Positions 3,601 to 20,000 of a stretch of DNA of 20,000 nucleotides are shown here, in pieces. Origin of the DNA: an uncultured virus (IMG/VR IMGVR_UViG_3300028603_000036) (taxonomy: Duplodnaviria; Heunggongvirae; Uroviricota; Caudoviricetes); IMG/VR virus record IMGVR_UViG_3300028603_000036. One strand, given 5' to 3'. How positions within the stretch are numbered: position 1 is the stretch's first letter; each line of letters begins with the position of its first letter. A program made the translations under genes and the position numbers. The notes beneath the pieces were generated by a model that was not told the DNA's origin, searched no databases, and saw only the letters and a list, made by a program, of their open reading frames with translations.

Positions 3601-6600
3601 ATTTTCATGACGCTGGAGGCGTTCGAGCGCATCCGCATGCGTGATGAGACGATCAGCGAGTACGAGGCGTTCATGCGCCGGGCTGACGCCAGTTTCTCGG
3701 AGAGCATGGACAAGAAGGAAGACGAGCGCGCCAAGAGCAAGCAAGCGGGCCTACTGTCCATCCTGTCGGACAAGCGTGGCAGCGCCCCCTACATCGAGGA
3801 CATGGGCGTGGATAGCGTCGTCTTCGATGAGGCCCACGTTTTCAAGAACTCCGCGCAGACCGTGGACTTCAAAGGGGCCAAGTTCCTTTCGATGTCGCCA
3901 GCATCCAAGCGTGGCATCGACGCCCAGGCCAAAGCATGGTTCATTCGCGGGCAATCCCCGCTGAAGGACGGCGTTCTGATGCTGACGGCAACGCCGATCA
4001 CGAACAGCCCACTGGAAATGTACGCCATGCTGTCGCTGGCCGTCGGCCATGAGCGCGTGAACGACCTTTGCCTGGGCATCAAGGGCGCCGACAACTTCAT
4101 GGAAATGATGTGCATCAAGGAGAACCAGGACGATGTGACCATGGACGGCGTGGCGCGCACCACCGATGTCTTTGTCGGCCTGAATAACGTCGGGGTGCTC
4201 CGCAAGTCCATCGGTGAGGTGGCGACCATCAAGAGCGCGGCTGACGTTGGCGGGCAGATCATTGTGCCGGAGCGTGAGGAAAAGCCCACGCCCGTCACGT
4301 TGCCTGATGCCGTGGTGGAACGTCTGAAGCTCTACAAGAGCGCCTTCCGATACGCCATTGATGAGCTGGCCGAGAAGTCGCCGAACCGTGGCGACCCGGA
4401 AGCCTACGACCAGGTTGCCCAGCACTTCGGCGAAGAGCTGAACCTGATTGGGCATCCTTTCAACCTCATCAATAAGATGACCATGCTCATTGCTGACCCA
4501 GAGCTTGACCAGCGGGCCAGTTTTTATAGCTACCTGTCCACCCAGGCGGACAAGGCCAAGCAGGCCATCGAGCAGTTCAACGCCCGCAAGATCACCGAGG
4601 AACGCCCCCGGCCCGGCCCGATGACGGATGAAAGCGCCATTGTCGGGAAGAAAAAGGTGAAGGACTCCGGCGGCAACGAAACCGAACTGCTGAAGATCGA
4701 GGTGCGGGCAAGGGCCATTGATGGCGGGCGCGTGGTGATCGACAGCATTGACCCGGACGTGCAGAGCGCATTCGAGGCTATCGCGGACAAGATCGGCCTT
4801 GACCTGGACGTGTCCGTGCCGCCCAAGCTGGCCGCCATGCTCGAAAACTTCCAGAACGAGCAGGCCAGTCCGCGTGGCATCGACGCCAGCGGCAAGGCGA
4901 CCAGCGTGGTCAAGCAGATCGTGTTTTGCGACATCCTGCCGCTGCACAACAAGATCAAGCGCCTTTTGACGCGCCGTGCCGGTGTGCCAAGCAGCGCCAT
5001 TGCCATTATCACGGGCCGCACCAACAACACGCCGGACGAAATCCTGGCCGTTCAGGACGGCTTCAACGGCGTGGGCGAGGACAGCAAGTATCAGACGGTG
5101 ATCGCCAACGAAAAGGCGGAAGTCGGTATCAACCTTCAGAAAGGAACGCAAGCGATTCACCACCTGACCATCGGATGGACGCCGGACAGTCTGGAGCAGC
5201 GCAACGGGCGCGGTGTTCGGCAGGGCAACGCGACCGAGCGAGTGAATCTCTACTATTACGATGCTGACGGCACCTTTGACACCAGCAAGCGTTCCATGGT
5301 GAACAAGAAGGCTGACTGGATTGGGCAGGTTATGGACGTGAACGGAACCGGCAGCGTGTCCGTGGCTGGCGGGCTGTCCAGGGAGCAGATGGAAGCACTC
5401 ATTGATGTGGTGGGCGACGTTGACGCCATGCGCCGGATGCAGGAGACGATTGCCGCCAAAGAGGCCGAATCGCGGGCCTCCAACAACCGCGACCGGCAAA
5501 TGATCAACCTGGATACCATCCGCAAGCAAAATACCTTCCTGAACGACAACCGGGCTGCCGATAGTTTCGTGATTCGCAAGATCATCGGCCTGTTCGGGCT
5601 GGAAAGGCAGGCCGACAAGCTGCGGGATCGTATTGCCAACCCGAAGGCAACGGCTACCGCTGTTGCCCGCAATGAAAGCCTGCTGGCCGAGCTGATGGCA
5701 AGCATAGGCGGCCTGCGGCGCCAGATCGAGGAATCGGCCACGCTGCACCGCTCGCAATGGAGCGGAGGCGGGCAAACCAGGGAGCCTGCGACTCTGGATA
5801 GCTTCTTTGCTGCTGTGCGTAGCGGTAAGAAGCAGAAGGACGATGATATTGAGGCCATGCTGCGCGGGCGCTCTTACCCGTCGTTCGGGCTTGAGATTGT
5901 CGAGGGCGGCCCGATCACCAACGAATGGCAGGCTGAAGTCGATATGGCGGAATCCATGATCGAAGAGGCCAAGGCCGCGTTCGCCCGCCAAGCCGAGGAA
6001 GCGGGTGGATACCCCGCTGACGTGGCCGAAGCCATTGCCCGAGGCGATGGGGTTGTCTACAACGGCAAGCCGCTGACTCACGGCACGTTTGTGCGCGTGG
6101 CTGGTGGGCTGGCGGTGCTGGCGCTTGAGAATGGCCGCCCGCGCGCCTTCGGTCGATCTATGGACGGCTCTCCGCTGGCGGCGGATACGTCGGCAGTTAT
6201 GGCCGGGGAGTGGATCTATCGTGGCACGGCTGGCTACGACTCGTGCCTGACGGACGCGGCGCAGATCGAAGACATAATCAACGGCGATGGCCGGATTGAA
6301 AACGGCTTCAATACGGTCGTGCCGGAGGTGGCGCAGCGCCGTAAGGTGGAGGCGCTGGCCGCTTATCGGGTGTTCGAGTATCGCTTGCCGCAGCCGTACT
6401 TCCCGTATGTGGTTGTGCCGACAGATGCCGACAAGTCGGAGGTGCAGCGCAGCATCTTTGAGTCGCAGAAGGCCGTGGTTCGGTCGTTCGATGGGGGCTC
6501 TTTCGTCGTGGCGGGCGACGTGGCCGTGGAGCGGGCGAACAGCCGTTCGGATGATCGGTTCAAGCTGCTGCGCGAATACGCTGTTGCCCATGGCATGAAG

Positions 6601-7080
6601 CTGACCGTGGCCGACTTTGACGGTAGCCCTATGTGGGTGCAGCGGCAGATTGAGGAAACGGTTACGGTGGACGCCCTGAAGGCTGCGCTGACCGGCAATA
6701 CTGAGCACGACATTCGTGAGCAGGCCGCCGCGTTCGTTCGTGGTGCGACGGGCTGGTTTGACTGGGAAGGGAAGGATACCAGCGACTACCTGCCGTATGA
6801 GTTCCGCATCGCCATTGTCAACGCCGGGCGCAAGGCCATGGCCGGAACCGAGCAGCCTTCCAGCCAGTCGCCCAATGACGTGGTGGGCATCCGGGGCAAC
6901 ACCATGGCCTGGAAAGACACGATCAAGAGCTGCGCCGTTCGCGCGGGAGCAGGCAAGTACAAGTGGGATAAGCGCTCTCTGTCATGGAACGTGTACCGTT
7001 CCACCTGGGATTACCTGGTTGCCAACTACCCCAAGGCGGCAGAGCAACTCGAATTGATCGGCGCGACCCGTTCACTGTAA
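628..7080 (+). CDS. darB: DarB-like antirestriction protein: N6-adenine methyltransferase fused to SNF2/SF2 helicase
   Basis: 2150 aa with a purine-rich RBS (AAGGA) upstream. MTase motifs: EYYTPKPIAEGIW, VLDPCAGVG (motif I), VVTNVPF (motif IV), AEFLGAYRLP, closely matching recalled P1 DarB. Helicase motifs: LHGYQ, GVGLGKT (Walker A), FDEAH, LTATP, EVGINLQ, LEQRNGRGVRQGN. Confidence 0.88.
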   Translation: MLNRNSLDDAAGGVLARLKLVGELARIKGELNDVGAGPVAAMKRLKLVSRANQIRASLGAAAPQASAAPEAAPVAEPQAAAAPEPQPEGGPEEVLEPRNQTAQYYEFDPNRKPAQRKKDNAEAMALLARIDAGEVAASSLTPEEKLALAKYSGTGGALIGADGKKGSAYEYYTPKPIAEGIWSLMEELGFAGGKVLDPCAGVGIFGATAPLNAAIDAVELNETSGRINGLVNAGPGYSATVAPFERVAAATPDEQYDAVVTNVPFGGVADRGGNQLLDDRYQKEPLQNYFILRTLEKLKPGGLAVFITPPRCVTGKGGKEEELRVKASYMAEFLGAYRLPNAVFGTASADTMTDVIAFRKYSREALDKIAELREQSPKALVEANVQWQPFVNGRYFDGEGKRFILGDFVPKDPNKFRDVDRVVTRQPIAEIARMLKRFPGSRVDWEMLGTVETTPIVYRDGDTITQSGQTLQMQDGRWVPMARTESSASMAELVGKLATPYSAFEGRVQWADAVQCVEHMIETSQSLDIPAWLRGAVAEIRHLKDEGQRAQFWNAGIVGMAADQVFEERMGEETGVNFAEEYPALSDAMQRVSVAARKRPAAIGGKLRDGLAFIGNHYQKKTGFSAVWRGDVRQEAPTVEITADASFEGLRYKTKSIWVSMEDARAIYGDGFDPYADADWCVSPDGKSVTRADDYYIGNYAEFLRRVDADIASAENEDIRAKLLRQKIDAESRIDRVDVSKLSFNLFSPHVTHEEKAEFLRRFVHPSAAVVYDEKTGVKRVDIDVPGSRLTDREKLLNRIGDYLKNGTITLGGAKLDMPDAQALQELRRMVNTANEQFNGWARGNRAVISRLEATASDPERLRFRQVEDEAPMPIPGMSEGLTLHGYQNAYVRKTSREFGGINGFGVGLGKTFTALAATQYAQSIGVKKKTLFVVPNSVLSNWRKEAMRAYSSTDDCLFVGLRIAKDGRATISSSNFDADLTAVMENRHSKIFMTLEAFERIRMRDETISEYEAFMRRADASFSESMDKKEDERAKSKQAGLLSILSDKRGSAPYIEDMGVDSVVFDEAHVFKNSAQTVDFKGAKFLSMSPASKRGIDAQAKAWFIRGQSPLKDGVLMLTATPITNSPLEMYAMLSLAVGHERVNDLCLGIKGADNFMEMMCIKENQDDVTMDGVARTTDVFVGLNNVGVLRKSIGEVATIKSAADVGGQIIVPEREEKPTPVTLPDAVVERLKLYKSAFRYAIDELAEKSPNRGDPEAYDQVAQHFGEELNLIGHPFNLINKMTMLIADPELDQRASFYSYLSTQADKAKQAIEQFNARKITEERPRPGPMTDESAIVGKKKVKDSGGNETELLKIEVRARAIDGGRVVIDSIDPDVQSAFEAIADKIGLDLDVSVPPKLAAMLENFQNEQASPRGIDASGKATSVVKQIVFCDILPLHNKIKRLLTRRAGVPSSAIAIITGRTNNTPDEILAVQDGFNGVGEDSKYQTVIANEKAEVGINLQKGTQAIHHLTIGWTPDSLEQRNGRGVRQGNATERVNLYYYDADGTFDTSKRSMVNKKADWIGQVMDVNGTGSVSVAGGLSREQMEALIDVVGDVDAMRRMQETIAAKEAESRASNNRDRQMINLDTIRKQNTFLNDNRAADSFVIRKIIGLFGLERQADKLRDRIANPKATATAVARNESLLAELMASIGGLRRQIEESATLHRSQWSGGGQTREPATLDSFFAAVRSGKKQKDDDIEAMLRGRSYPSFGLEIVEGGPITNEWQAEVDMAESMIEEAKAAFARQAEEAGGYPADVAEAIARGDGVVYNGKPLTHGTFVRVAGGLAVLALENGRPRAFGRSMDGSPLAADTSAVMAGEWIYRGTAGYDSCLTDAAQIEDIINGDGRIENGFNTVVPEVAQRRKVEALAAYRVFEYRLPQPYFPYVVVPTDADKSEVQRSIFESQKAVVRSFDGGSFVVAGDVAVERANSRSDDRFKLLREYAVAHGMKLTVADFDGSPMWVQRQIEETVTVDALKAALTGNTEHDIREQAAAFVRGATGWFDWEGKDTSDYLPYEFRIAIVNAGRKAMAGTEQPSSQSPNDVVGIRGNTMAWKDTIKSCAVRAGAGKYKWDKRSLSWNVYRSTWDYLVANYPKAAEQLELIGATRSL

Positions 7081-7090
7081 GGATTGAGAC

Positions 7091-7504
7091 ATGGCATACA
7101 CCGAATACAAGTTCGACAAGGAAGCAATCAAGAGCCTGGTGGCCGAGCGCGCCGCCGCCCTGCGCGCCAACCGGGGGTTTTCCAACCTGCTGGCGTTTGG
7201 GCTGGGTGTCGTGGCCGACCGCCTGAACAAAGATCCGCGCCGCTACCGGGATTACGGCCCCTATTGGTGGGCGCTCAAGGACGCCATGAAAGCCGGTGGC
7301 TACAGCCTGGGCGACCAGACTGACCCTCTGGTGAAGCGGGTATACCAGGGCGATAGCGAGGCGGAAACGCTCATCATGGCCGATGAGTTCCGCACCGAAT
7401 ACCTGAAAACGCACATGGTTTATGCAAACCAGTTCCAGCTTGATGCGGGTAGCGCGGACTTTTATGAGCTGTTCGACGCGGATATGGAGTTTCCGGCAGC
7501 CTAA
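7091..7504 (+). CDS. ulx: Ulx-like protein (promotes DarB incorporation into virions in P1)
   Basis: 137 aa. RLNKDPRRYRDYGPYWWALK parallels the recalled P1 Ulx motif RLLKNPRLYRSYGPYW. It follows darB directly, as in P1. RBS AAGGA/GAG upstream. Confidence 0.78.
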   Translation: MAYTEYKFDKEAIKSLVAERAAALRANRGFSNLLAFGLGVVADRLNKDPRRYRDYGPYWWALKDAMKAGGYSLGDQTDPLVKRVYQGDSEAETLIMADEFRTEYLKTHMVYANQFQLDAGSADFYELFDADMEFPAA

Positions 7505-10045: not shown

Positions 10046-10683
10046 GCGCAGGCGTTTACATCATCAAGAACATTAAAAATGGGAAGGTGTATGTTGGCAG
10101 CTCTGCCGACATACCTACCAGGTGGCGCAAGCATAGAGGAACGCTTGAGGCTGGTACGCACCACAACACAAAACTACAGCGTGCATGGTTCAAATATGGT
10201 CGAGATGTATTTTCGTTTGAGGTGGTGGAGATCGAGCCGGACTACGAAAAACGTCTCAAGGCAGAGCAGAGGCTTATTGACCAGCAAAATTCCGCAGTCA
10301 CTGGATACAACATTTACAGCACGGCGGGGAGTCCTCAAGGGTATAGGCACTCTGAGGAAACAATCGCAAAGATTTCTGCTTCGCAGAAGGGCAGGAAGAA
10401 ACCGGCTGGACACGGGGAGCGGGTTTCTGCGGCCCGCAAGGGCATGGCTGTCGGTGCGGATGAGATTGCGCGCTTGGGTGCAATCCGACCCAAATTCCAT
10501 ACCGCTGAATCGCGGGAAAAAATGTCCGCATCACGGCGCGGAAATACGCACCGGCGCGGCTTCAAGGCGTCCGATGAGACGAGGGCCAAGCAGTCAGCAG
10601 CCTTGAAGGGGCGGCCAAAGTCTGAAGAGGCAAGGCGCAATATTGCCGCAGCCGTCCGTCGCCGATTCGGCAAAGAGAGTTGA
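10042..10683 (+). CDS. Free-standing GIY-YIG homing endonuclease with NUMOD3-like DNA-binding repeats
   Basis: The real start is likely ATG 10042 (ATGA overlap with the upstream stop), giving 213 aa. GVYIIKNIKNGKVYVGSS...RWRKH...HHNTKLQRAWFKYG...E...YNI is the I-TevI/Seg-type catalytic domain. HSEETIAKIS, HTAESREKMS, ASDETRAKQS and KSEEARRNIA are NUMOD3-like. Visibly more AT-rich than its neighbours. Confidence 0.9.
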   Translation: MSAGVYIIKNIKNGKVYVGSSADIPTRWRKHRGTLEAGTHHNTKLQRAWFKYGRDVFSFEVVEIEPDYEKRLKAEQRLIDQQNSAVTGYNIYSTAGSPQGYRHSEETIAKISASQKGRKKPAGHGERVSAARKGMAVGADEIARLGAIRPKFHTAESREKMSASRRGNTHRRGFKASDETRAKQSAALKGRPKSEEARRNIAAAVRRRFGKES

Positions 10684-10685
10684 AT

Positions 10686-13600
10686 ATGGCACTGAAGCAT
10701 GACGCCCAAGGATTCCTGGTTGGCGACCCTATCGACTTGAGCGCCCTGGTGGCCGAATGGGCTGGCATCCGTGAGGACGTGCGGGCCATTCGGCAGGCGG
10801 TGCTTGGGATTGAGCAGGCCATGAGCAGCATGGCGCCGGAGTCCACGCCGGTGGCGCTTGCCGTGCCTGGTCGCAGCACCGGCCTTGAAGAAGCTGACCC
10901 GGCTGTAAAGGCGCTGTCCGAAGTCGCACAGCCGGTGATCGCCATCCAGCCAGTTGAGAGCACCGGCGCGCCAGTGCAGCACCAGCAGCCAGAAGCTGCC
11001 CGTCCTGCGCCATCGGCGGCGTCCGCTCCAGCCGCGTCCAGAGACGTGCGGCAAATCCCCGTTTTGTTGCGCACACCGGCCACGCCGAAGGCGAATGCAG
11101 CCGGAGGCGGGCGAGAGGGGGCGGCAGATGCCGCCGTGAACAGGGTAGTTGCCGAGCTGCGCGCCACACGGGCGGCAACGCTACGCGCGCCGGTGGAGCC
11201 GCCGCGCCGGGATAGTCGTGGCAGGTTCGTGAAGGGGCAGGAAGCCAATCAGTCGAAACCCGGCCAGCGCTCCGATGGATCTTCGCCGCGCGAAGAGGAA
11301 GAGCAGGATGAAAGCCTGGTTCGGTCGCTGACTGACCGTGTAACCGGAGCGGTTCGGGAGGCCAGCACCGGCCTTGAAGAAGCTGACCCGGCTGTAAAGG
11401 CGCTGTCCGAAGTCGCACAGCCGGTGGCTCGTGGCTTCGAACTGATAACAGGCGGCGGCGACCAGCAGAAAAAGCAGGAACGCTGGCTGCGCCGCATCTT
11501 CACTACGCTGACCGGCTCCCGGAAAGAGCAAGGTCTGTTCAACAAGATTGCGGCCAAGCGCCTGAAGGCTATCGAAGAAAAGCCGGTGCCGGACGGCGAC
11601 AGCATGGGAATGAGCTTCATTGGCGGTCTACTGGGCTTGCTGGGTGGCCTGTTCGCCAAGATTCCCGGCATTGGCAAGCTGCTTCCGGGTGCCGCTGGTG
11701 CCGCTGGCGCGGCGGGTGCTGCGGCAGGTATGGGGAAGGCTGCCAAGGGCGGCGGCATTGGCCGCATGCTGCGCCGCGTTCCGATTCTGGGGGCGCTGAT
11801 TGGCGGCGCTGGCCTTGCCTACGACCTCTACAGCTCCGAAAACGACGAAACCTTGACGCGCCGAGAGAAAGACCAGAGGGCAGGGCGCGGAACGGGGAGC
11901 CTGGCTGGTGCCGTCGGCGGTATGTGGGCTGGCGCGAAGCTGGGCGCTGCCGTGGGCGCCCTGGGTGGGCCGATTGGCGCTGCGATTGGCGGCGTTGTGG
12001 GCGGTGCCGCCGGACTGTTCTTTGGCGACAAGGCCGGGCAGGTGGTGGGCGAAACGGTGGGCGGCTGGGTGTCCGACCTTCGGGAAGCCGACGTTGGCGG
12101 GATGATCGCCCAGAAATGGGATGCGGCTGTCGAGCGTTTCAGCTCCAAATGGGATGAGGTGTCGGGCTGGTTCAGCTCGAAATGGGATGAAGTTTCGGAG
12201 CGGTTTACGTCCAAATGGGATGAAGTGTCCGAACGCTTCAGCTCCAAGTGGGATGAGCTGACCAAGGGCTTGCAGAGCAAGTGGGATGGGCTGGTTGGCG
12301 ACCTGAAGGGTCTATGGGGCGACATCACCAGCGCAGCCGAGGATGCCTTTGACTGGGTGAAGAGCAAGGGCGACCAAGCCAACGACTACATCAAGTCCGT
12401 TACCGGCGTGGACGTGAAGGAAACCGCCAGAACTGCCGTGAACAGCACCAGAGAGGTGGCTGCTACCGCAATCGCATCAGTCAGGAGCGCAGGCAACGCG
12501 GCCAATGAGGTAGTAAAGGACTGGACTGGCGTGGATGTGAAAGCATCTGCCGGTCGCGCCGTGACTGCGGCCAAGGATGGCGCTGCCTGGGTGGGTGATA
12601 GGGCGACGGCTGCCAAGGATTGGGTTCTCGGCAAAACATCCAAACTATTCGAGTCTGGGAGCGGGGGCGCTGGAACGGTGTCTACAGGGCGTGGCGACCA
12701 CGGCGGCGCATCCTATGGAACCTATCAGCTCGCATCGAATACAGGAACCCTGAAAAAGTTTCTTGACTCAACCTCTTATGGCGAGCAATTCAAGGGCATG
12801 ACGCCCGGAACCAGAGAGTTCAATGACAAGTGGAAACAGATCGCCAGGGATGACCCGAATTTTGGCGATGCCCAGCATGAGTTCATCAAGCAGACACATT
12901 TTGACCCGCAGATTGAGAGGCTGAATAAGGCCGGGATTGACCTGTCTGGTCGTGGCGCCGCCGTAAAGGATTCCGTATGGAGCACATCAGTCCAGTTTGG
13001 TGGAAACAGCAGCCTGATCGAGAAAGCCCTGGCTGGACGCGATGTTGAGAAAATGTCGGATTCTGAAATCGTGTCCACTATTCAGGACTACAAGATTCAG
13101 AATAACGATAGGCTTTTCGCAAGCTCTTCAGATGCAGTGAGAAGGGGAACGCTTAATCGCGCGCATCAAGAGAAAGTGCGCCTTCTTGAGCTTGCCCAGG
13201 CCGATATTCAGGCGCGGTCTGACGAGCGATCCACCCCTGCCGCATCGACAATGGAGGCGCTTTTGGTTGCCGCAACGCCAGCGGAGCACCCTGTTCAAGC
13301 TGGGCGTGGAGTTGAGGCCAGTCCGCGAAATGAGGGTGTAGGACGCGAGGGTGGAGAGCGGGCGCTGGCAATGGCACCTGGCGAGGGTGCGACGGGGCCG
13401 GTTTCCGCTGGCGCGCCTGCATCCGCGCCCGCGCCATCGACCGCTGCCCCGGCATCATCGCCGGAAGTGGCCGTTACCGCGCCGCCTGCGGCCCCTGCCG
13501 CTCCCGTGGTTGCCGGTGCGGCCATGCCCGAAGCCATCAGCCTGGCGGCCCCTGCCGCGCCGGTGGTGGCCGTTGCATCCGTTCCAGCGGTTCCGAGCGC

Positions 13601-13766
13601 CCCCACTATGCCACCTATCGCTGACGCGCCGCCGGTGTCCGTGCCAATGGCGTCCGGCGATACGCGCAAGCCCGTGGCCGTGGTGTCTGCGCCGACCGAG
13701 GTGGGCCAAGACTTGCGTGAGCGCGGTATTGCGCACATTGCCACCGGCGGGCTGGGCAAGGGCTAA
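10686..13766 (+). CDS. Tape-measure-like protein (P1 Sit position) with a lysozyme-like, VgrG3-C-type peptidoglycan hydrolase domain
   Basis: About 1026 aa from ATG 10686 (GAGAG RBS; TTG 10680 is an alternative start). It has glycine-zipper hydrophobic segments, 11-aa Trp-periodic repeats, a FESG...SYGTYQ...VWSTSVQFG lytic domain and a Pro/Ala-rich tail. It sits before pmgA/bplA-like genes, as sit does in P1. Confidence 0.8.
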   Translation: MALKHDAQGFLVGDPIDLSALVAEWAGIREDVRAIRQAVLGIEQAMSSMAPESTPVALAVPGRSTGLEEADPAVKALSEVAQPVIAIQPVESTGAPVQHQQPEAARPAPSAASAPAASRDVRQIPVLLRTPATPKANAAGGGREGAADAAVNRVVAELRATRAATLRAPVEPPRRDSRGRFVKGQEANQSKPGQRSDGSSPREEEEQDESLVRSLTDRVTGAVREASTGLEEADPAVKALSEVAQPVARGFELITGGGDQQKKQERWLRRIFTTLTGSRKEQGLFNKIAAKRLKAIEEKPVPDGDSMGMSFIGGLLGLLGGLFAKIPGIGKLLPGAAGAAGAAGAAAGMGKAAKGGGIGRMLRRVPILGALIGGAGLAYDLYSSENDETLTRREKDQRAGRGTGSLAGAVGGMWAGAKLGAAVGALGGPIGAAIGGVVGGAAGLFFGDKAGQVVGETVGGWVSDLREADVGGMIAQKWDAAVERFSSKWDEVSGWFSSKWDEVSERFTSKWDEVSERFSSKWDELTKGLQSKWDGLVGDLKGLWGDITSAAEDAFDWVKSKGDQANDYIKSVTGVDVKETARTAVNSTREVAATAIASVRSAGNAANEVVKDWTGVDVKASAGRAVTAAKDGAAWVGDRATAAKDWVLGKTSKLFESGSGGAGTVSTGRGDHGGASYGTYQLASNTGTLKKFLDSTSYGEQFKGMTPGTREFNDKWKQIARDDPNFGDAQHEFIKQTHFDPQIERLNKAGIDLSGRGAAVKDSVWSTSVQFGGNSSLIEKALAGRDVEKMSDSEIVSTIQDYKIQNNDRLFASSSDAVRRGTLNRAHQEKVRLLELAQADIQARSDERSTPAASTMEALLVAATPAEHPVQAGRGVEASPRNEGVGREGGERALAMAPGEGATGPVSAGAPASAPAPSTAAPASSPEVAVTAPPAAPAAPVVAGAAMPEAISLAAPAAPVVAVASVPAVPSAPTMPPIADAPPVSVPMASGDTRKPVAVVSAPTEVGQDLRERGIAHIATGGLGKG
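10874..11426 (+). repeat. Exact 64-bp direct repeat (10874-10937 and 11363-11426), in frame
   Basis: CAGCACCGGCCTTGAAGAAGCTGACCCGGCTGTAAAGGCGCTGTCCGAAGTCGCACAGCCGGTG occurs twice, 489 bp (163 codons) apart. Both copies encode STGLEEADPAVKALSEVAQPV. Confidence 0.95.
12114..12317 (+). repeat. Degenerate 33-bp tandem repeats (11-aa KWDxxxxxFSS tape-measure repeat)
   Basis: AAATGGGAT/AAGTGGGAT at 12114, 12147, 12180, 12213, 12246 and 12279, with a further Trp codon in register at 12315. Confidence 0.92.
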
Positions 13767-13818: not shown

Positions 13819-14125
13819 GGCAAAGATCAATGGAAACGACGTTCAGGGGATGGTTCGCCACTGGCTGAATACGCCGGTTGGCGGCTATCTGGGTTCTGAC
13901 TATGGACAGGACACGAAATCACTTTTGCAGCGCCCGCATGCTGATGGCGCTGCTGATTCGTTCCTGGCAAAGATGCGCAGCGACGTTCCGGTGCTGGAGG
14001 CTCTGCCTGCCGGTTCGCTGAACCTGTACGGGGTTCCGTCTGCCCCAGACCGCCTTGACCTGGTGGTGGAGGTCTTCGGCCAGGCCATAGAAATTACCGG
14101 AGGGGCCAATGCTAACCAAGGCTGA
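13817..14125 (+). CDS. pmgA: Baseplate wedge / sheath-initiator protein, P1 PmgA-like (gp25-like)
   Basis: 102 aa. HWLNTPVGGYLGSDYG resembles recalled P1 PmgA (EWLNTYQGEVYGDPSWG). Synteny sit-pmgA-bplA. Confidence 0.65.
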   Translation: MAKINGNDVQGMVRHWLNTPVGGYLGSDYGQDTKSLLQRPHADGAADSFLAKMRSDVPVLEALPAGSLNLYGVPSAPDRLDLVVEVFGQAIEITGGANANQG

Positions 14126-15605
14126 TTTCCAGAAGGCTATCCGCGACTCGATCAATACATACCCGAATGTCGCGCCGCTTTTCCAGGCGGGCGATCCTCG
14201 CATCATGCAGCACCTGGACGCTATGGCGACCATGCTTTCCATGTTGTCGGCCCAGGTGGAGACGGCCCAGGCCGAGCCGTTTGAGAAGGCGCGGGATTCA
14301 ACCGTTCTGGCAGACGCCGCCATGCGCGGCATTGTGCGCAAAGGTAAGTCCGCGCGCGTTAGGTTGCGGGCCGTTAATACGGGAAGCGAACCTTTCACTG
14401 TGGAGTCTGCGCGGACGCTGCTGGATGCGTCGGGCCTAGCTTGGCGCGTAGAGACGGCGGCGACGGTCGAGCCTGGTGGTTCGGCGACATTCGAGGCCAG
14501 CCAGATCAGCTCAACCCGCGTGAGACATATTGTCCGTGGAACGGAGCCGTTCTACGCCATCCAGGTTCCGGCGCCGGGCGATGACTCATATTTGTGCGCG
14601 ATTGCTGTCAGTGATGTTGATGGCGCCTTTGAGCACCGCGACCGCTACGTGAATACCGATGTTGATGAGCGGGTGTTCCACGTCGAGGCCGACGACCAGC
14701 AGCGCGTGTACGTTCGCTTTGGCTTTGACGGCGTGGTGGGGGTGCAGCCGAAGGATGGCGCGGAAATCGACCTGACCGTGTTCTATACGGCGGGCGAGGT
14801 TAGCCCGGCCTACGGCAGCCCGTTTTCTTTCGAGTATCTGGGCGCGCCCGCCGAGGCCGCCATCACTATGAGCATGGATGCGTTGTTGGTGGCAGGGCAG
14901 AATCCTATGCCCATGGCCGTGCTGCGCGACCTGGCCCGCTATCCGTCCGTCTATGACAACAACGCAGTGTTCCTGGGCGAGTTCGATTTTCTGGTGCGGC
15001 GCAAATTCCCGACCCTTAAATTCCTATCCGTCTGGAATGAGTCGGCAGAGGAACAGGCGCGTGGCCCGAGTTTTGACAACATCAACGCCCTGTTCGTGGC
15101 TTGCCTATCGAGCGATGGCGGTGAACAGGTGCGCCATGAGGATGATCCTGATACCCCGGTCGCCCCACTGGTGATCGAAGGCGATTCCCTGACCGCCACC
15201 CAGCAGGAAATAAAAGCTGCCATCCTGGCCGCCGACGACAGCTATCGGGTGCATTTTTTCACGCCGGTGCGCTCGAAGATCCGCATGACCATCAATGCCC
15301 GTGTGTCCACGTCCTATGTTGCGTCCGACGTTAAGGAGAAGATCACCGAGGCGCTACTGACGGAGTTCGGCCAGGATTCGGCGGCGGCCCGGCGCGGGCG
15401 GCAGCGCCCGCTGTACCAGCGCGTTTACGCACTGCTGCGTAAGAAGGTTCAGGCGCTGTCCGATGGCGAGGCGGACTTGACCGTGAATATCGTGGAGCCT
15501 GCATCGCTGCTGGCGCGGCCTGAAATGTGGCGCTACCTCGATCACGACACGCTGGCCGTGAACGTGGAGACGGTCAACATCGTTACGCCATCCTGGGGCG
15601 GGTAG
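14109..15605 (+). CDS. bplA: Baseplate wedge protein, P1 BplA-like (J-like)
   Basis: 498 aa, overlapping the upstream gene, with a GGAGG RBS. AEPFEKARDSTVLADA, VRFGFDGVVGVQPKDG and YDNNAVFLGEFDFLVRRKFPTLKFLSVWNE...NINALFVA parallel recalled P1 BplA. Confidence 0.78.
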   Translation: MLTKADFQKAIRDSINTYPNVAPLFQAGDPRIMQHLDAMATMLSMLSAQVETAQAEPFEKARDSTVLADAAMRGIVRKGKSARVRLRAVNTGSEPFTVESARTLLDASGLAWRVETAATVEPGGSATFEASQISSTRVRHIVRGTEPFYAIQVPAPGDDSYLCAIAVSDVDGAFEHRDRYVNTDVDERVFHVEADDQQRVYVRFGFDGVVGVQPKDGAEIDLTVFYTAGEVSPAYGSPFSFEYLGAPAEAAITMSMDALLVAGQNPMPMAVLRDLARYPSVYDNNAVFLGEFDFLVRRKFPTLKFLSVWNESAEEQARGPSFDNINALFVACLSSDGGEQVRHEDDPDTPVAPLVIEGDSLTATQQEIKAAILAADDSYRVHFFTPVRSKIRMTINARVSTSYVASDVKEKITEALLTEFGQDSAAARRGRQRPLYQRVYALLRKKVQALSDGEADLTVNIVEPASLLARPEMWRYLDHDTLAVNVETVNIVTPSWGG

Positions 15606-15608
15606 GCC

Positions 15609-17198
15609 ATGGGTTCCTTCGACTTCTCAAATGCCGAGCTGCCGCGCCTGCTGCCGCTGGAAAACAGCTATGCGGAGAACGGCGTCGAAGCCGACCTCAA
15701 GCAGTTATTCCTTGACCTGTTCAACCAGCATCTGGCGGCGGACACGTTCGACGTGAACGTGCTGGGCGCTGCGCATCTTGGCAGTTTCGACCTGGTGCGC
15801 CGAGCCGTAAACACTGATGGCCTGGTGCTGATGCAGGGCGACCGCGAAGAGGCTGCCACTCGCTACCTGTACCGCGCCTGGAAATCGGGCGATGTGCAGG
15901 GGCGCGGGCTGCACTTCCTGCGCACCTACCTTCAGATGCTGTTCCCGAATCTGTGCCAAGTTGATCAGCTTTGGCACGACAAGAATATGCCGTACCCGAC
16001 CGGGCTATATTCGTCCAAGCCACGGTTTTCGTGGTGGCTGCACCAGCTTGGTGAGCCGGGCCTGAAGTTGGACGGTTCCTGGGGCGTTGGTCGGCGCATC
16101 CTGGATGCGGACGAAAGTCGCGCCGACCGCGAGGTCGATACCGACAATATGTATCTGACCAGCCGCGTGGAAATCGTGCTGGACTTCAGCGTGAACGTGC
16201 GTTCGGTGGCAAGCCTGATGCACATTATCCGTTCGGTGATACCGGCGCGCTTGCTACCGCTGTTCCGATTCTGGCTGACTTTCGTGCTGCACCTGGAGAT
16301 CCTTGCGTCGTCCAGCCTGTTCATGGAAAAGAACGCCAAGATGCGTTACCCGTGGTGCGGGCGCGTCATTGGCGAATCCGATGATGTCCGCTGGAAGCTG
16401 GGCCGCGACGGGGAGCTGGTCAAGCTGGGTCTGCCGTTCGGCACCTTCCGCCTGGGCGAGATTCGAGGCGGTAAGTCGGTGTGGCGGCTGAAAAGCTGCC
16501 GCATCGAAAGCGACCTGCTGATGGAAAGCCACGCCAGCGCGTCCGCCTACCGGCTGCCCACGATTGGAGAAAAAGACCGGCGACTGGACGGCACCTGGCG
16601 GCTGGGTGGGCGGTCGATATACGTGGGCAGCCGTGCGCTCATGCAGAAGCGCGTCAACATGGATGTTCCCGCTGACCTGCTGACGACATTCCACGAACAC
16701 CACCAGATCAAGTACCCGGCCAATCCCGCGCGGCTGGGCGCGCGTGTGCGCCTGTCATCCTGGCGTCGTCTGGATGGCCGCTGGAAGGTGGGCGGCCTTC
16801 TGGCTCCGCGTCCGTTCGGCTTCACCCTGGAGCGCGGCGAGCCTTTCCTGATTGAAAGCAGCACGACCATGGCATCCGAGGCTTCTATGTGGGCCTTCCC
16901 GGAGCGCCTGACGCGCGCGGCGGCAACGAAGGTGACAGGCACACCGCGCCAGCTCAATGGTTCCTGGTACTTGGGCGCAGAGAACAAGCTGGGGCGCTTC
17001 CGGCTGAATGGCCGCCGCCTGCGGGCCATGAAGATGACCAAATATCCGCGCCTGGGCCACTTCAAGGTGGCCGCCGACATACCGGGCGAAGAACAGTATG
17101 TGTCCGGCACCGTCCGACGCCTGCGCCTGGATGGTGGGTGGCAAATCGGCAGCCCAGCGGCACCCGAGTTCACTTTTGAGGCGTTCAAGGTGGGTTAA
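15609..17198 (+). CDS. Baseplate wedge protein (gp16/gpI-like N-terminus) with extended C-terminal L[DN]GxW repeats
   Basis: 529 aa, following bplA-like. GRGLHFLRTYLQMLF, LTSRVEI and IIRSVIPARL fit a tail-protein-I-like wedge subunit. Five L[DN]GxW motifs are present. Confidence 0.6.
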   Translation: MGSFDFSNAELPRLLPLENSYAENGVEADLKQLFLDLFNQHLAADTFDVNVLGAAHLGSFDLVRRAVNTDGLVLMQGDREEAATRYLYRAWKSGDVQGRGLHFLRTYLQMLFPNLCQVDQLWHDKNMPYPTGLYSSKPRFSWWLHQLGEPGLKLDGSWGVGRRILDADESRADREVDTDNMYLTSRVEIVLDFSVNVRSVASLMHIIRSVIPARLLPLFRFWLTFVLHLEILASSSLFMEKNAKMRYPWCGRVIGESDDVRWKLGRDGELVKLGLPFGTFRLGEIRGGKSVWRLKSCRIESDLLMESHASASAYRLPTIGEKDRRLDGTWRLGGRSIYVGSRALMQKRVNMDVPADLLTTFHEHHQIKYPANPARLGARVRLSSWRRLDGRWKVGGLLAPRPFGFTLERGEPFLIESSTTMASEASMWAFPERLTRAAATKVTGTPRQLNGSWYLGAENKLGRFRLNGRRLRAMKMTKYPRLGHFKVAADIPGEEQYVSGTVRRLRLDGGWQIGSPAAPEFTFEAFKVG

Positions 17199-17210
17199 CC
17201 CTCTTGGATT

Positions 17211-17261
17211 CGGAAAATGCCGCCGTTTCGGGCAGTTCCGGGCAGCAAGAATGGCTGGCAT
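17211..17261 (+). promoter_or_regulatory. Putative late promoter, copy 3 (tail fibre / receptor-binding operon)
   Basis: CGGAAAA 17211-17217, 29-nt spacer, AAGAAT 17247-17252, and GCAT at 17258-17261 in the same register as copies 1 and 2. A short leader with AGGAGG (17273-17278) follows. Confidence 0.6.
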
Positions 17262-17284
17262 CACGACGTTCTAGGAGGACTGGC

Positions 17285-17665
17285 ATGGCCGAAGCCGTGG
17301 TAGCCAATATTTATCGCCGCCGCATCGCCGCTCGCATGGCCGGTGGCGCAAACATCGCGCCCATTGCCTTTATGGCGTTCGGCGACGGCGGGCATAACGC
17401 GGACTTGACGCCGAAAGCGCCGTCCGCCAACGCCACTTCACTGAATAACGAGATTCTGCGCAAGCCGCTGGCGGCCATCACGCAAGAAGACCTGTATTCG
17501 GTAACGGGCAAGGGGGCGATTGAAGCCAATGAGGTTGTCGGTGCGGGAATTTCCGAAGCGGCCCTTATTGACGCCAATGGAAACCTCGTCGGCTTGAAGA
17601 CGTTTGCGCCGAAGTTCAAGGAGAACGACGAGCGTTACGAAATCAGTATCAAGCTGCGCTTTTAA
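17285..17665 (+). CDS. Tail-collar fibre protein (fibre attachment domain, DUF3751-like)
   Basis: 126 aa from ATG 17285 with a perfect AGGAGG SD, preferred over TTG 17204. MAFGDGG...SLNNEILRKP...ISEAALIDANGNLVGLKTFAPKFK is typical of collar/fibre N-terminal domains. Confidence 0.75.
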   Translation: MAEAVVANIYRRRIAARMAGGANIAPIAFMAFGDGGHNADLTPKAPSANATSLNNEILRKPLAAITQEDLYSVTGKGAIEANEVVGAGISEAALIDANGNLVGLKTFAPKFKENDERYEISIKLRF

Positions 17666-17676
17666 GGAGCCTTCAA

Positions 17677-18594
17677 ATGGCATTGCCCCACCCGAAAATT
17701 ACCCCGCTTCCCAACAATGAACCCGACGCGGTTCCTTCCCTGTGGAACACCCGCTATGACGAGATTGATGCGAACTTCGCTGATCTGGATGGCCGTCTTG
17801 TCGCTCGTGAAAATGAACTGAACGCGGCGCGCGGCGGGAAAGCGAATCTTGGCATCCGCCTGAATGAACTGGAATCCAGTGTGTCCGGCCAGTCGGAGGA
17901 GGCCGACAACAACAAGATCGCCGTTTTGCTCTTTGCGCTGCAACAAGCAGCGCTGGCAAATTCAGGCGTCAACACCCTGAAGACGGTCGCCCAACAGGAA
18001 GGCGAAATCGTCATTACGAACCGTGGCCTGATTCGCGGCTGCGCGGCCAGCAAGTCCACGACCGCCACGCGGAACCTGAATTTCACCGATGGCGCCTGCT
18101 TTGCGCAGGGCCGCGCGTTTGCCGTCAGCGGCACCGATAACGCGGCCAGCGTTCCCAGCAATCCGTCCGGCTCTTCCGTCACGGTGCGCGCGTATCTGTT
18201 TCAGGATGCCAACGGCTCGTGGCGGCCCGCAGTGACGCCGGTCGGCACCGACGTACCGGACGGCGCTATCACGCTCTACCAACTGACCATCCCCGCCGGT
18301 AATACCGACGCGACAGACCCCAATTTGAGCGGCGTCACGCTGACCAGCGTGCGCCGGTTTGAGCCGCAGTTCCCTCTGCTGCTCGATAGCCCGCCCACTC
18401 AGACGGTCGCCATCAACACCCTTGGCGCTTCCGACTACCAGCTTGCGTTCGATGTGGTGTCCGCTCAAGGCGCGCCCTGCGGCGCTGACGCCGTGGTTGC
18501 GCATAGCCGCGCCACCAATGGCTTTTCCATTGAGCTGCACAGCGCAGCAGACAACGTGCGCCTGCGCTGGAAGCTCTCGCGCTTGAGCAACTAA
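17677..18594 (+). CDS. Putative tail fibre / receptor-binding scaffold protein
   Basis: 305 aa with AAGGAG SD. N-terminal coiled coil (NTRYDEIDANFADLDGRL...AARGGKANLGIRL) followed by beta-rich domains. Located in the fibre operon. Confidence 0.6.
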   Translation: MALPHPKITPLPNNEPDAVPSLWNTRYDEIDANFADLDGRLVARENELNAARGGKANLGIRLNELESSVSGQSEEADNNKIAVLLFALQQAALANSGVNTLKTVAQQEGEIVITNRGLIRGCAASKSTTATRNLNFTDGACFAQGRAFAVSGTDNAASVPSNPSGSSVTVRAYLFQDANGSWRPAVTPVGTDVPDGAITLYQLTIPAGNTDATDPNLSGVTLTSVRRFEPQFPLLLDSPPTQTVAINTLGASDYQLAFDVVSAQGAPCGADAVVAHSRATNGFSIELHSAADNVRLRWKLSRLSN

Positions 18595-18614
18595 CCCCCT
18601 CGAAGGAGAAAACA

Positions 18615-18950
18615 ATGGCACGTATTCAATTGAAGCAGCCCGGCCAGGCCGTGGCTGATTTTGCGGTGGACGGCCACGTCATCACTGTGGCCGGTGTCCT
18701 GGTGGACTGCCGCGAATTGCAGCAGGACAGCATGCAAGTCGTTGAGGTGCGCCAGTCCGGCAGCACCGCCCATATCGGTGGCGATGGCGCATACCTGGCG
18801 CACATCGTCATTCCGGCCCGCGTCTACGAAGAGATCCCGGTCGAAGGCAGCGAGGAAGACGAGGGCGAAGAGGGTCAAAGCGTCGAGCGCGTGGCCCAGG
18901 AGCTTGACCCCAACGCCATCGAAGTAACCCTCTGGCCCCTGGCGAACTGA
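18615..18950 (+). CDS. Small phage protein, putative adaptor for the Mtd-like receptor-binding protein
   Basis: 111 aa with AAGGAG SD. YLAHIVIPARVYEE...acidic loop...LDPNAIEVTLWP resembles a small-gene family I recall upstream of FGE/CLec DGR targets in phages. Confidence 0.55.
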   Translation: MARIQLKQPGQAVADFAVDGHVITVAGVLVDCRELQQDSMQVVEVRQSGSTAHIGGDGAYLAHIVIPARVYEEIPVEGSEEDEGEEGQSVERVAQELDPNAIEVTLWPLAN

Positions 18951-18959
18951 TCGCCAGGG
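18937..18959 (+). other. GC-rich hairpin over the stop codon, upstream of the mtd-like gene
   Basis: CCCTGGCGA (18937-18945), loop ACTGA, TCGCCAGGG (18951-18959): a perfect 9-bp stem with no U-tract. Confidence 0.45.
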
Positions 18960-18983
18960 CAGCCGCAACTATTGGAGAAATTC

Positions 18984-20000
18984 ATGCCCAGCATTTACGT
19001 GAAAGACGAGCTACGCGCTTCCGTCGAAGCCGCCAGCGGCGGCAAGCAGACCATCCTGTATACCGCCAGTGGACAGCCGTCCATCATGAACGTCGTGCCG
19101 AAGTTCAATCTGGAAGACATTGATGTCAGCCTTGGCACCGGCGTCCATCCCGCATTCATCGTCGGCGGCGTCGAGAAAAGCGAGCTGTTCATTGGCGCGT
19201 ATCAGGGAATCATCAAGAACGGCGAGCTGGTTTCTCTGGCCGGTGTTGACCCCAGCGCCTCCGCCAATCACGACACATTCGTGAATGCAGCGCGGGCAGC
19301 CGGGCCTGGCTTTCACCTCACCACGAACGCGGAGTACGCTGCGCTGGCCCTGTGGTGTCAGAAAAACGGTTTCCAGCCGCGCGGCAACAGCAACTACGGT
19401 CGCTCCCACGAAGCCACGCACGAAACGGCCCGCCGTCAGGATGGCGGCACCCCCGGAGCCAGCAGCGGCACCGCCCGCACCTTGACCGGCTCTGGCCCTG
19501 CGTCGTGGCGTCACGACAATACGCCGAATGGTATTTCCGACCTGTGCGGGAATATTTGGGAATGGTCGCCTGGCATGCGCCTGATGGACGGCGAAATTCA
19601 AGTCATCCCCAACAACGACGCCGCACTGCACACCACGGACTTGGCGCGCACTTCCAGTGCCTGGCGCGCTATCCGTGCAAGCGACGGCGCCCTGGTGGCT
19701 CCCGGCACCGCTGGCACCCTCAAGTACGACGCCTCAAGCCCGACCGGCGGCAACATCGTCCTTTCCGACGCCATTACCAACCGTCTTGGCGAGCTGGGCG
19801 ACGACGCGAACTCCGGTAACTCGGCGTCTGTTGCGCTGAAGAGCATGACGGCTAAGGCTGGCCTGAATGTTCCTGCTATCGCCAAGGCGTTGGGACTGTA
19901 TCCGGCTGTGCCTGAAACGATGAAAAGTGAAAGCGCCTATATGCGCAACTATGGCGAGCGCGTCCCGTCTCGTGGCGGCAGCTGGAGCAGCGGCGCGGAT
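18984..20000 (+). CDS. Mtd-like C-type-lectin/FGE-fold receptor-binding protein, probable DGR target (3'-truncated)
   Basis: Absent from the ORF track because there is no stop in the window. ATG 18984 with GGAG SD, 339 open codons: MPSIYVKDELRASVEAASGGKQT...HPAFIVGGVEKSELFIGAYQ...GFHLTTNAEYAALALW...RTLTGSGP.SWRHD...GISDLCGNIWEW...RNYGERVPSRGGSWSSGAD. These are hallmark FGE/CLec motifs. Confidence 0.85.
   Translation, partial: MPSIYVKDELRASVEAASGGKQTILYTASGQPSIMNVVPKFNLEDIDVSLGTGVHPAFIVGGVEKSELFIGAYQGIIKNGELVSLAGVDPSASANHDTFVNAARAAGPGFHLTTNAEYAALALWCQKNGFQPRGNSNYGRSHEATHETARRQDGGTPGASSGTARTLTGSGPASWRHDNTPNGISDLCGNIWEWSPGMRLMDGEIQVIPNNDAALHTTDLARTSSAWRAIRASDGALVAPGTAGTLKYDASSPTGGNIVLSDAITNRLGELGDDANSGNSASVALKSMTAKAGLNVPAIAKALGLYPAVPETMKSESAYMRNYGERVPSRGGSWSSGAD

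Follow-up and report, generated by a model that had tools for sequence, protein, structure and literature searches.

A very probably complete diversity-generating retroelement with a TaqVP-type lectin-fold target in a temperate phage distantly related to P1

Results

The DNA analysed here, 20,000 bp of an uncultured Caudoviricetes virus (IMG/VR record IMGVR_UViG_3300028603_000036; hereafter the window), ends within an open reading frame, target gene 1, of which the 3' end had been interpreted from the letters of the window as the variable region (VR) of a diversity-generating retroelement (DGR). We consider it very probable that a complete DGR is present and that the lectin-fold protein encoded at the end of the window is part of it. 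The window corresponds to C3:52617-72616, the last 20 kb of contig C3 (72,616 bp), and its end is the end of the contig. When the sequence is extended downstream by closing the contig, the check proposed in the sequence-only reading, an avd gene, a template repeat (TR) and a DGR-type reverse transcriptase (RT) gene are found directly 3' of the target (Table 1).

Closure is possible since the last 158 nt of the window recur at the start of C3. The contig ends overlap, and therefore the frame that starts at the ATG at 18984, which is preceded by GGAG 8-11 nt upstream and is open to base 20000 over 339 codons, continues at the contig start into a protein of 366 aa. The start was fixed at this ATG because nine full-length homologues, all of 366 aa, share the N-terminus MPSIYVKD. 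The motifs that had been quoted for this frame are all present (GFHLTTNAEY, residues 109-118; DLCGNIWEW, 186-194; RGGSW, 329-333), and its final ten codons in the window indeed read CGT GGC GGC AGC TGG AGC AGC GGC GCG GAT.

The two contig-end copies differ at 5 of the 158 nt. This incomplete identity (97%, not 100%), together with the fragmentation of the assembly into 259 contigs, would fit an assembly artefact, in which the contig is non-circular and the target gene and the DGR derive from different molecules or strains. However, all five differences align to adenines of the template repeat TR1, at positions within VR1, as alleles generated by a DGR would. Furthermore, in a provirus with a target that is 96% identical (loci L010/L119) the order baseplate protein, p529, p153, p305, p111, target, orf99, avd1, RT1, avd2, RT2, integrase is contiguous, the part from the target to RT2 is also contiguous in loci L013, L015 and L016, and C3 1-4187 is covered by a single contig of 126.6 kb from sequencing run X3. 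Because of the contiguous order in L010/L119 and the spanning X3 contig, the join across the contig ends is no assembly accident, and the probability of an artefact is negligible. The phage is temperate and contractile-tailed, with a genome of ~72.5 kb that is circular (or was assembled as such), and the window forms its right end.

An ungapped alignment pairs TR1, in which 24 of the 117 nt are A, with VR1 (codons 325-363 of target 1). The homology begins at window position 19956 (C3 114), close to the position of 19950 that had been guessed for the start of the variable region. All 11 mismatches between TR1 and the VR1 copy at the contig start are at TR adenines (hypergeometric P = 2.9e-9), as are all five mismatches with the partial copy in the window (P = 2e-4). 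A second cassette, avd2-TR2-RT2, follows directly behind RT1, and its template repeat matches a variable region in a remote gene (VR2, in target 2), again with every mismatch at a TR adenine (8/8 over 102 nt; P = 2.2e-6). All 24 VR/TR mismatches of this genome are thus at TR adenines, with none elsewhere in the repeats. A template differing from the variable region almost only at adenines was what the sequence-only reading had proposed to look for; even its codons, AAC TGG AAC AAC where the window reads AGC TGG AGC AGC, had been predicted, and exactly these are read in TR1, which encodes ...RGGNWNNGAN....

The 3' ends of VR1 and TR1 have the GC-rich block GGCGGTCGGCCCGCT in common, after which VR and TR diverge, as the initiation of mutagenic homing sequences IMH and IMH* do. 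A GC-rich hairpin with a 9-bp stem and a GGTA loop (C3 265-286) is located 35 nt after VR1. It is conserved in an alignment of 13 loci, and 6 of its 9 pairs show compensatory changes. For BPP-1 and other phage DGRs, PMC3240598 defines by experiment a hairpin with a GC-rich stem of 7-10 bp and a GRNA loop, 4-34 bp after the VR, and judged by its sequence the VR1 hairpin fits the target-site consensus as published there.

The accessory proteins Avd1 and Avd2 scored 112.5 and 94.5 bits, respectively, against the NCBIfam equivalog NF033474, 'DGR protein Avd' (cut-off 80), and matched Pfam bAvd at E values of 2e-31 and 7e-24. Both RTs matched RVT_1 and contain YMDD, in addition to IGNLTSQ in RT1 and VGALTSQ in RT2; a survey of 155 elements describes (I/V/L)GxxxSQ as characteristic of DGR RTs (PMC3521204). 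RT1 is 39.6% identical to Brt of Bordetella phage BPP-1 over 95% of the RT1 length, and its best PDB match was 8ub7_A (E 8e-63), which is known only by the depositors' label 'Reverse transcriptase'. By sequence motif, and for RT1 also by identity to Brt, RT1 and RT2 are DGR-type RTs. The replicon therefore carries, as anticipated, an avd gene that passes the NF033474 cut-off and, downstream of it, an RT gene with the SQ motif and YMDD.

Two further parts of cassette 1 are orf99 and the spacer between TR1 and RT1. The former is conserved at 38-70% identity in seven related loci (L010, L012-L016 and L119); Pseudomonas phage Bise has no ORF between target and avd, and so no counterpart of orf99 there. 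The spacer resembles the Rfam family RT-14. In 3 of the 10 related loci scanned, a match to this family immediately follows the TR and exceeds the gathering score. According to Weinberg et al. (PMC5737381), the RT-10 motif lies between TR and RT in BPP-1, and other RT motifs were speculated to belong to other DGRs. RT-14, the role of which was left open at its description, is here seen directly after the template repeat of TaqVP-type DGRs, a location that supports its being a DGR spacer RNA.

Target 1 matched PDB entry 5VF4 with an E value of 7e-104 over residues 5-337 (phmmer against PDB) and phrog_2889 at 1e-135. An AlphaFold model of the part encoded in the window (pLDDT 83.3) superposes on 5VF4 with a TM score of 0.87-0.88, an rmsd of 3.3 A and 51% identity (Foldseek E 2.4e-39). 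The protein in this entry, TaqVP, is the variable protein belonging to a DGR in a Thermus aquaticus prophage; PMC6328139 describes it as monomeric and single-domain, with a C-type lectin fold of the formylglycine-enzyme subtype and a VR at residues 341-374. The family of target 1 comprised 2581 proteins at E <= 0.001 among 8000 scored, and is present in named phages of Pseudomonas, Klebsiella, Vibrio, Aeromonas and Faecalibacterium. Sequence and predicted structure together identify target 1 as a single-domain, formylglycine-enzyme-type C-type-lectin protein of the TaqVP family, and its gene is, by gene order, the last of the tail-fibre gene cluster. The proposal of a C-type-lectin-fold DGR target with a C-terminal variable region thus held. 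Its description as Mtd-like has to be abandoned: the structure-model comparison gave TaqVP, no chain of Mtd was among the best 50 Foldseek matches of the model, and the two proteins have only the lectin fold in common. Membership of the Mtd family was rejected on these grounds.

Inferring from the BPP-1 prototype, we expect that an RNA comprising TR1 and the spacer would be copied by RT1 together with Avd1, and that template adenines would be misread during copying. The cDNA would then replace VR1, guided by the common GC-rich 3' block and the downstream hairpin with its GRNA loop. In this way 14 codons (24 adenines) would be randomised on the ligand-binding face of target 1, and the likely outcome would be a change of the cell-surface receptor bound by the phage.

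The pattern of variation suggests that the DGR of target 1 is probably active. The two VR1 alleles at the contig ends come from one assembly, and their five differing sites are all aligned to TR adenines. Among 38 listed of the 44 differences between C3 and the X3 contig, from a run labelled single organism, all 17 in VR1 align to TR adenines and none falls within C3 340-2514, which includes TR1. Compared with its closest protein homologue, target 1 has 14 changes in the 39 residues of the VR and 9 in the 324 residues elsewhere. A VR/TR pair is present in each of the 25 related viral loci with both avd and RT, and in 24 of these most or all mismatches are at TR adenines, the exception being L012 (8/17); the adenine-biased variation among homologues on which the sequence-only reading had staked its prediction is therefore present. 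Contigs of runs X1 and X2 leave C3 ~144-207, inside VR1, uncovered; hypervariation could produce such a gap, but missing cover does not count as evidence. Two VR1-TR1 joints that appeared in the contig mapping (143->1009 and 250->1016) are contig links induced by the repeat and have no biological meaning.

Several observations weigh against an active and complete DGR, or against parts of this interpretation. Variation was assessed at the level of contigs. VR2 shows no difference in the X1 contig that spans it (X1 may be the source sample), and in the close relative G001, the L010 provirus, 11 of the 20 mismatches between VR2 and TR2 are not at adenines. The stem of the VR1 hairpin has one A-G mismatch, a 96-nt fold around it was not better than shuffled sequences (z = -1.37), and the hairpin after VR2 has a 3-nt loop that does not fit GRNA. 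The spacer of cassette 1 scored 2 bits below the gathering score of RT-14 (46.0 versus 48.1), and neither target 1 nor target 2 matched a family in Pfam or NCBIfam. Enzymatic activity, receptor and virion location are all inferred, the last from gene context.

The first three of these points (contig data only, an unchanged VR2 in X1 and the non-adenine mismatches in G001) would be in line with a fossil or orphan target, in which the retroelement is now inactive and the lectin protein is a static adhesin. On the other hand, the avd and RT genes of the two cassettes are intact, the RTs with YMDD and the SQ motif, the mismatches between variable and template repeats are confined to TR adenines in 24 of 24 cases, and neither the two alleles of one assembly nor, among its listed differences, the X3 contig shows any difference in VR1 away from adenine-aligned sites. 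We regard a fossil as highly improbable, and a DGR that still diversifies target 1 as the better explanation.

The genes upstream of target 1 bear on its role. The protein p305 is a chimeric fibre protein: over residues 1-82 it resembles the N-terminal part of a 540-aa fibre in Xanthomonas phage Rb1 (41% identity), over residues 1-69 the beginning of a DGR-tipped fibre in relatives L116 and L117 (55-61%), and over residues 41-303 the product of a gene located two upstream of the DGR target in Pseudomonas phage Bise (OR683401.1; 53%). The gene in between in Bise is a homologue of p111 (45% identity), which precedes the target in 18 of 43 viral loci (12 sequences are covered by alignment A4). 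Bise has the same block of fibre part, small gene, target, avd, TR and RT, with identities of 61.5% for the target, 39% for avd and 36% for RT. Further upstream, p153 is 50% identical to its Rb1 counterpart and matched Pfam PF12571 weakly, below the cut-off (E 9e-4), and the baseplate protein has 63% identity to that of Rb1 and, across half its length, 25% to BplA of P1.

Target 1 could be a real DGR target without being a receptor-binding virion protein, and have another binding role, for instance towards molecules of the host or of competitors after lysis, or intracellularly. Its solved homologue TaqVP is monomeric and is given no function in PMC6328139 as far as that source could be consulted, target 1 is encoded by a separate small gene without fusion to a fibre shaft, and its paralogue target 2 is encoded in an early operon outside the tail module. 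Yet the gene of target 1 closes the string of baseplate and fibre genes on the late strand, and is inherited in Bise as a block with p305(41-303) and p111, both of which precede the target in the 18 loci mentioned above. In relatives, moreover, the fibre itself ends C-terminally in a related (type-2) lectin domain, and one homologue is annotated as a virion structural protein in the phage record phiARM81mr. A non-virion role is thus unlikely, and gene context argues for target 1 as a putative receptor-binding protein of the virion, possibly in contact with p305 or p111.

The target of the second cassette is located 12.7 kb from it, on the opposite strand. Targets 1 and 2 are paralogues (hhalign between their families: 99.5% probability, E 6e-23), target 2 being the shorter. 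Its family profile matched 5VF4 at 3.5e-18, and its structure model (pLDDT 95.4) matched TaqVP (E 8e-16), Mtd (8e-5, rank 4), FGE enzymes and TvpA. By its sequence match, avd2-TR2-RT2 is a cassette that acts in trans on target 2. A type-2 lectin domain adjoins its own avd2- and RT2-like genes in 28 of 54 viral loci. In L069, where the baseplate module is P2-like, an 855-aa fibre has such a domain as its C-terminal end.

Two side observations concern this cassette and its target. The spacer between TR2 and RT2 (C3 2845-3007) is strongly conserved in five related phages and shows several hairpins, with compensatory changes in 6 of the 45 predicted pairs; no Rfam family matched it at E <= 0.1, and it may be a type of DGR spacer RNA that has not yet been described. 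A 157-aa protein with two N-terminal transmembrane segments (C3 17805-18278, minus strand; phrog_11227, 'protease') is encoded 24 nt upstream of target 2, and is 80% conserved beside a target-2 homologue in locus L059.

The relatives suggest how the tandem arrangement may have arisen. The P1-related phages G006, G010 and G008 have only an RT2-type cassette, the TR of which matches two VRs, one at the C-terminus of a fibre that shares its N-terminal 69 aa with p305 and one in a remote stand-alone gene. Mismatches at TR adenines amounted to 8/8 and 9/9 in G006, 11/12 and 20/24 in G010, and 13/13, 13/13 and 15/15 in G008. In the phage studied here, p305 from residue ~41, p111, target 1, avd1 and RT1 all match Bise. 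The simplest reading of these sequences is a tip swap, in which the distal fibre was exchanged, together with its VR, for a Bise-like block that brought its own DGR, and avd2-TR2-RT2 stayed for the remote target. It is based on p305 having kept the N-terminus of the DGR-tipped fibre of the relatives, but matching Bise from residue ~41 onwards. Two tandem RT genes are present in 5 of the 43 target-1-type loci (L010, L013, L015, L016 and L023). Cassette 2 may be decaying in some members, such as the L010/G001 lineage. In provirus G005 no TR2/VR2 match was found at E < 1e-6 between loci L023 and L054.

A more far-reaching proposal is that, after the tip swap, cassette 2 acts solely in trans and that target 2, which has no signal peptide, is a diversified binding factor outside the virion, expressed early or during lysogeny. 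Such a factor could serve in receptor masking, superinfection exclusion or the sensing of invaders, for example. We put this forward tentatively, as rather improbable; if true, one phage would possess two hypermutation systems for two different jobs.

The virion had been described as P1-type. The contig encodes an integrase, Erf/RecE-type recombination genes, a CII-like regulator, a DnaC-like loader, a terminase and a contractile-tail virion module, and by PHROG names it has P1-style genes (PmgG-like, Hdf-like, DarA-like, DarB-like and Ulx-like). In a tblastn comparison with P1 bases 1-48000, 8 of 84 ORF translations matched at 25-59% identity: Hdf, DarA, DarB, Ulx, portal, Pro and BplA at 25-38% and the non-virion SSB at 59%. 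No match was obtained for P1 S, U, R and cin at E <= 1e-4. The order tape measure, pmgA-like, bplA-like, p529, p153, fibre is that of P1 sit-pmgA-bplA-16-R-S, and therefore the DGR block stands where P1 has S/U and the Cin-invertible segment.

Judged by its gene content, the phage is not a punavirus, because it has a tyrosine integrase, the contigs of run X3 break at C3 4175-4187, in the way expected of an integrated prophage, no resolvase (PF00239) is encoded on C3 and no long inverted repeats occur in window 14000-20000. The last two findings also led us to reject an inversion system of the Cin type, and the integrase and the integrated state in run X3 indicate that it is not a plasmid prophage. 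Of the P1-type virion, distant homology and gene order stand, whereas the plasmid-prophage lifestyle does not. Similarly, the claim that a DGR replaced an invertible fibre cassette is correct as to position, but finds no support as an account of its history: the closest relatives have a DGR-tipped or an ordinary fibre there. The nearest cultured relative by its baseplate protein, Xanthomonas phage Rb1, has an ordinary fibre and no DGR at this place.

Some other features of the backbone were noted. The Dar set consists of a 2150-aa DarB-like methyltransferase/helicase, an Ulx-like and an Hdf-like protein and a 1626-aa DarA-like internal head protein, 28-38% identical to their P1 counterparts. 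A 1028-aa tape-measure-like protein in the P1 sit position (window 10680-13766) has a VgrG3-like C-terminal peptidoglycan hydrolase domain (PF21277, E 2e-73). The region C3 4091-4490, just upstream of the integrase gene, is a probable attP with GATGGTA-like repeats in both orientations and the terminator that follows RT2. A search for attB in the same assembly gave only chance matches of 14-17 nt, and no tRNA gene was found at the attachment region. Finally, sRNA-Xcc1 (RF02221) scored above its gathering score in L010 (3669-3753, minus strand), upstream of the baseplate genes.

Table 1. Positions of the retroelement parts, their targets and neighbouring genes. Positions without prefix are those of the window; C3 is the complete contig and L numbers are related loci.
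Feature	Position	Strand	Basis or remark
Target gene 1, codons 1-339 of 366	18984..20000	+	rest at C3 159-239, stop 240-242
VR1, first 45 nt	19956..20000	+	ungapped match to TR1; whole VR1 is C3 114-230, 117 nt, codons 325-363
Circular junction of the assembly, broken inside VR1	19843..20000	+	158 nt recurring as C3 1-158
orf99, 99 aa, two hydrophobic segments	C3 313-612		phrog_1443
avd1	C3 614-988		NF033474
TR1	C3 1001-1117		ungapped alignment to VR1
Spacer, Rfam RT-14-like	C3 1116-1268		46.0 bits
RT1	C3 1293-2357		RVT_1
avd2	C3 2354-2704		directly behind RT1
TR2	C3 2743-2844		
RT2	C3 3008-4090		42% identical to RT1
Terminator after RT2	C3 4233-4256		
Tyrosine integrase	C3 4488-5735		
Target 2, 321 aa	C3 16815-17780	-	leftward operon, between the 157-aa two-transmembrane protein and erf; intrinsic terminator follows
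VR2	C3 16822-16923	-	TR2 match; last 35 codons (287-321) of target 2, 33 whole codons inside
RT-14 in related loci	L031 3370-3528; L023 11584-11722; L033 5688-5840		Rfam
p111, small conserved gene; may be fibre-tip adaptor or chaperone	18615..18950	+	phrog_8734
p305, chimeric fibre protein	17677..18594	+	N-terminal ~80 aa P1-related backbone; 41-303 DGR-carrying module
p153, tail-collar-fibre-like backbone gene, P1 gene R position	17204..17665	+	PHROGs 9521, 1780, 4618
Baseplate protein, BplA homologue	14109..15605	+	phrog_1369 at 3e-105
P1-style Dar antirestriction set	628-7080, 7091-7504; C3 47626-48114, 48351-53231		

Discussion

Every element of this locus has a precedent, including lectin-fold DGR targets in tail modules (BPP-1, TaqVP and many metagenomic phages). 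In the BPP-1 prototype (mtd-avd-TR-brt) the parts stand in the same order, from a target with its VR at the 3' end through avd, TR and a structured spacer to RT. Mismatches at adenines only and an RT related to RT1 are further common features, as is, judged by sequence, a GC-rich hairpin with a GRNA loop after the VR. In contrast to Mtd, the target described here lacks the beta-prism and beta-sandwich trimerisation domains. An ORF with two transmembrane segments separates it from avd, a second cassette follows, and the spacer is RT-14-like, whereas that of BPP-1 has the RT-10 motif. The TaqVP DGR of Thermus aquaticus agrees in target, cassette layout and place of the VR (325-363 in target 1), and differs in host lineage and phage backbone; the phage described here has a P1-related tail module and a second DGR. 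Bise, with which the block from fibre part to RT is shared, differs in that its 38-kb genome has baseplate genes of the P2 type (V, J) and only one cassette.

More than one target, or a target at a distance, has been described before. In the 'Quimbyviridae' one VR follows the tail-fibre genes and a second is located distal to the structural module on the opposite strand (PMC8008677), and PMC5758913 describes phage DGRs with a non-adjacent or only a non-adjacent target and ORFs nested between target and core genes. DGRs with two RTs appear to be rare, with 12 in one survey (PMC11661182). Unlike the two-target DGRs of the 'Quimbyviridae' type, each target has its own avd-TR-RT here, and the cassettes are in tandem. 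The C-segment of P1 (S/U, S'/U', Cin) has the same genomic position and presumably the same purpose, varying the specificity of the distal fibre; the mechanism is entirely different, no resolvase gene on the contig and no flanking inverted repeats having been found in the phage studied here.

New are the P1-related backbone as carrier of a DGR and the clear history of module swapping behind the tandem cassettes. The combination of a DGR and a P1-related backbone occurs in at least 7 of the 43 related IMG/VR loci, and the IMG/VR elements may already be listed in DGR surveys (PMC8144416, PMC5758913, PMC11661182). Our literature search found no paper that pairs 'diversity-generating retroelement' with 'P1-like'.

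Conclusions

A reading of the raw sequence foretold a retroelement past the break in the contig, down to the codons of its template. For work on host range, the genome contains two regions of 100-117 nt at which assemblies can be expected to break and of which the alleles should not be collapsed. The finding adds a DGR to a P1-related, Dar-carrying myovirus backbone, and provides a natural example of DGR cassettes that travel with tail-fibre tips, with the old cassette retained for a remote target.

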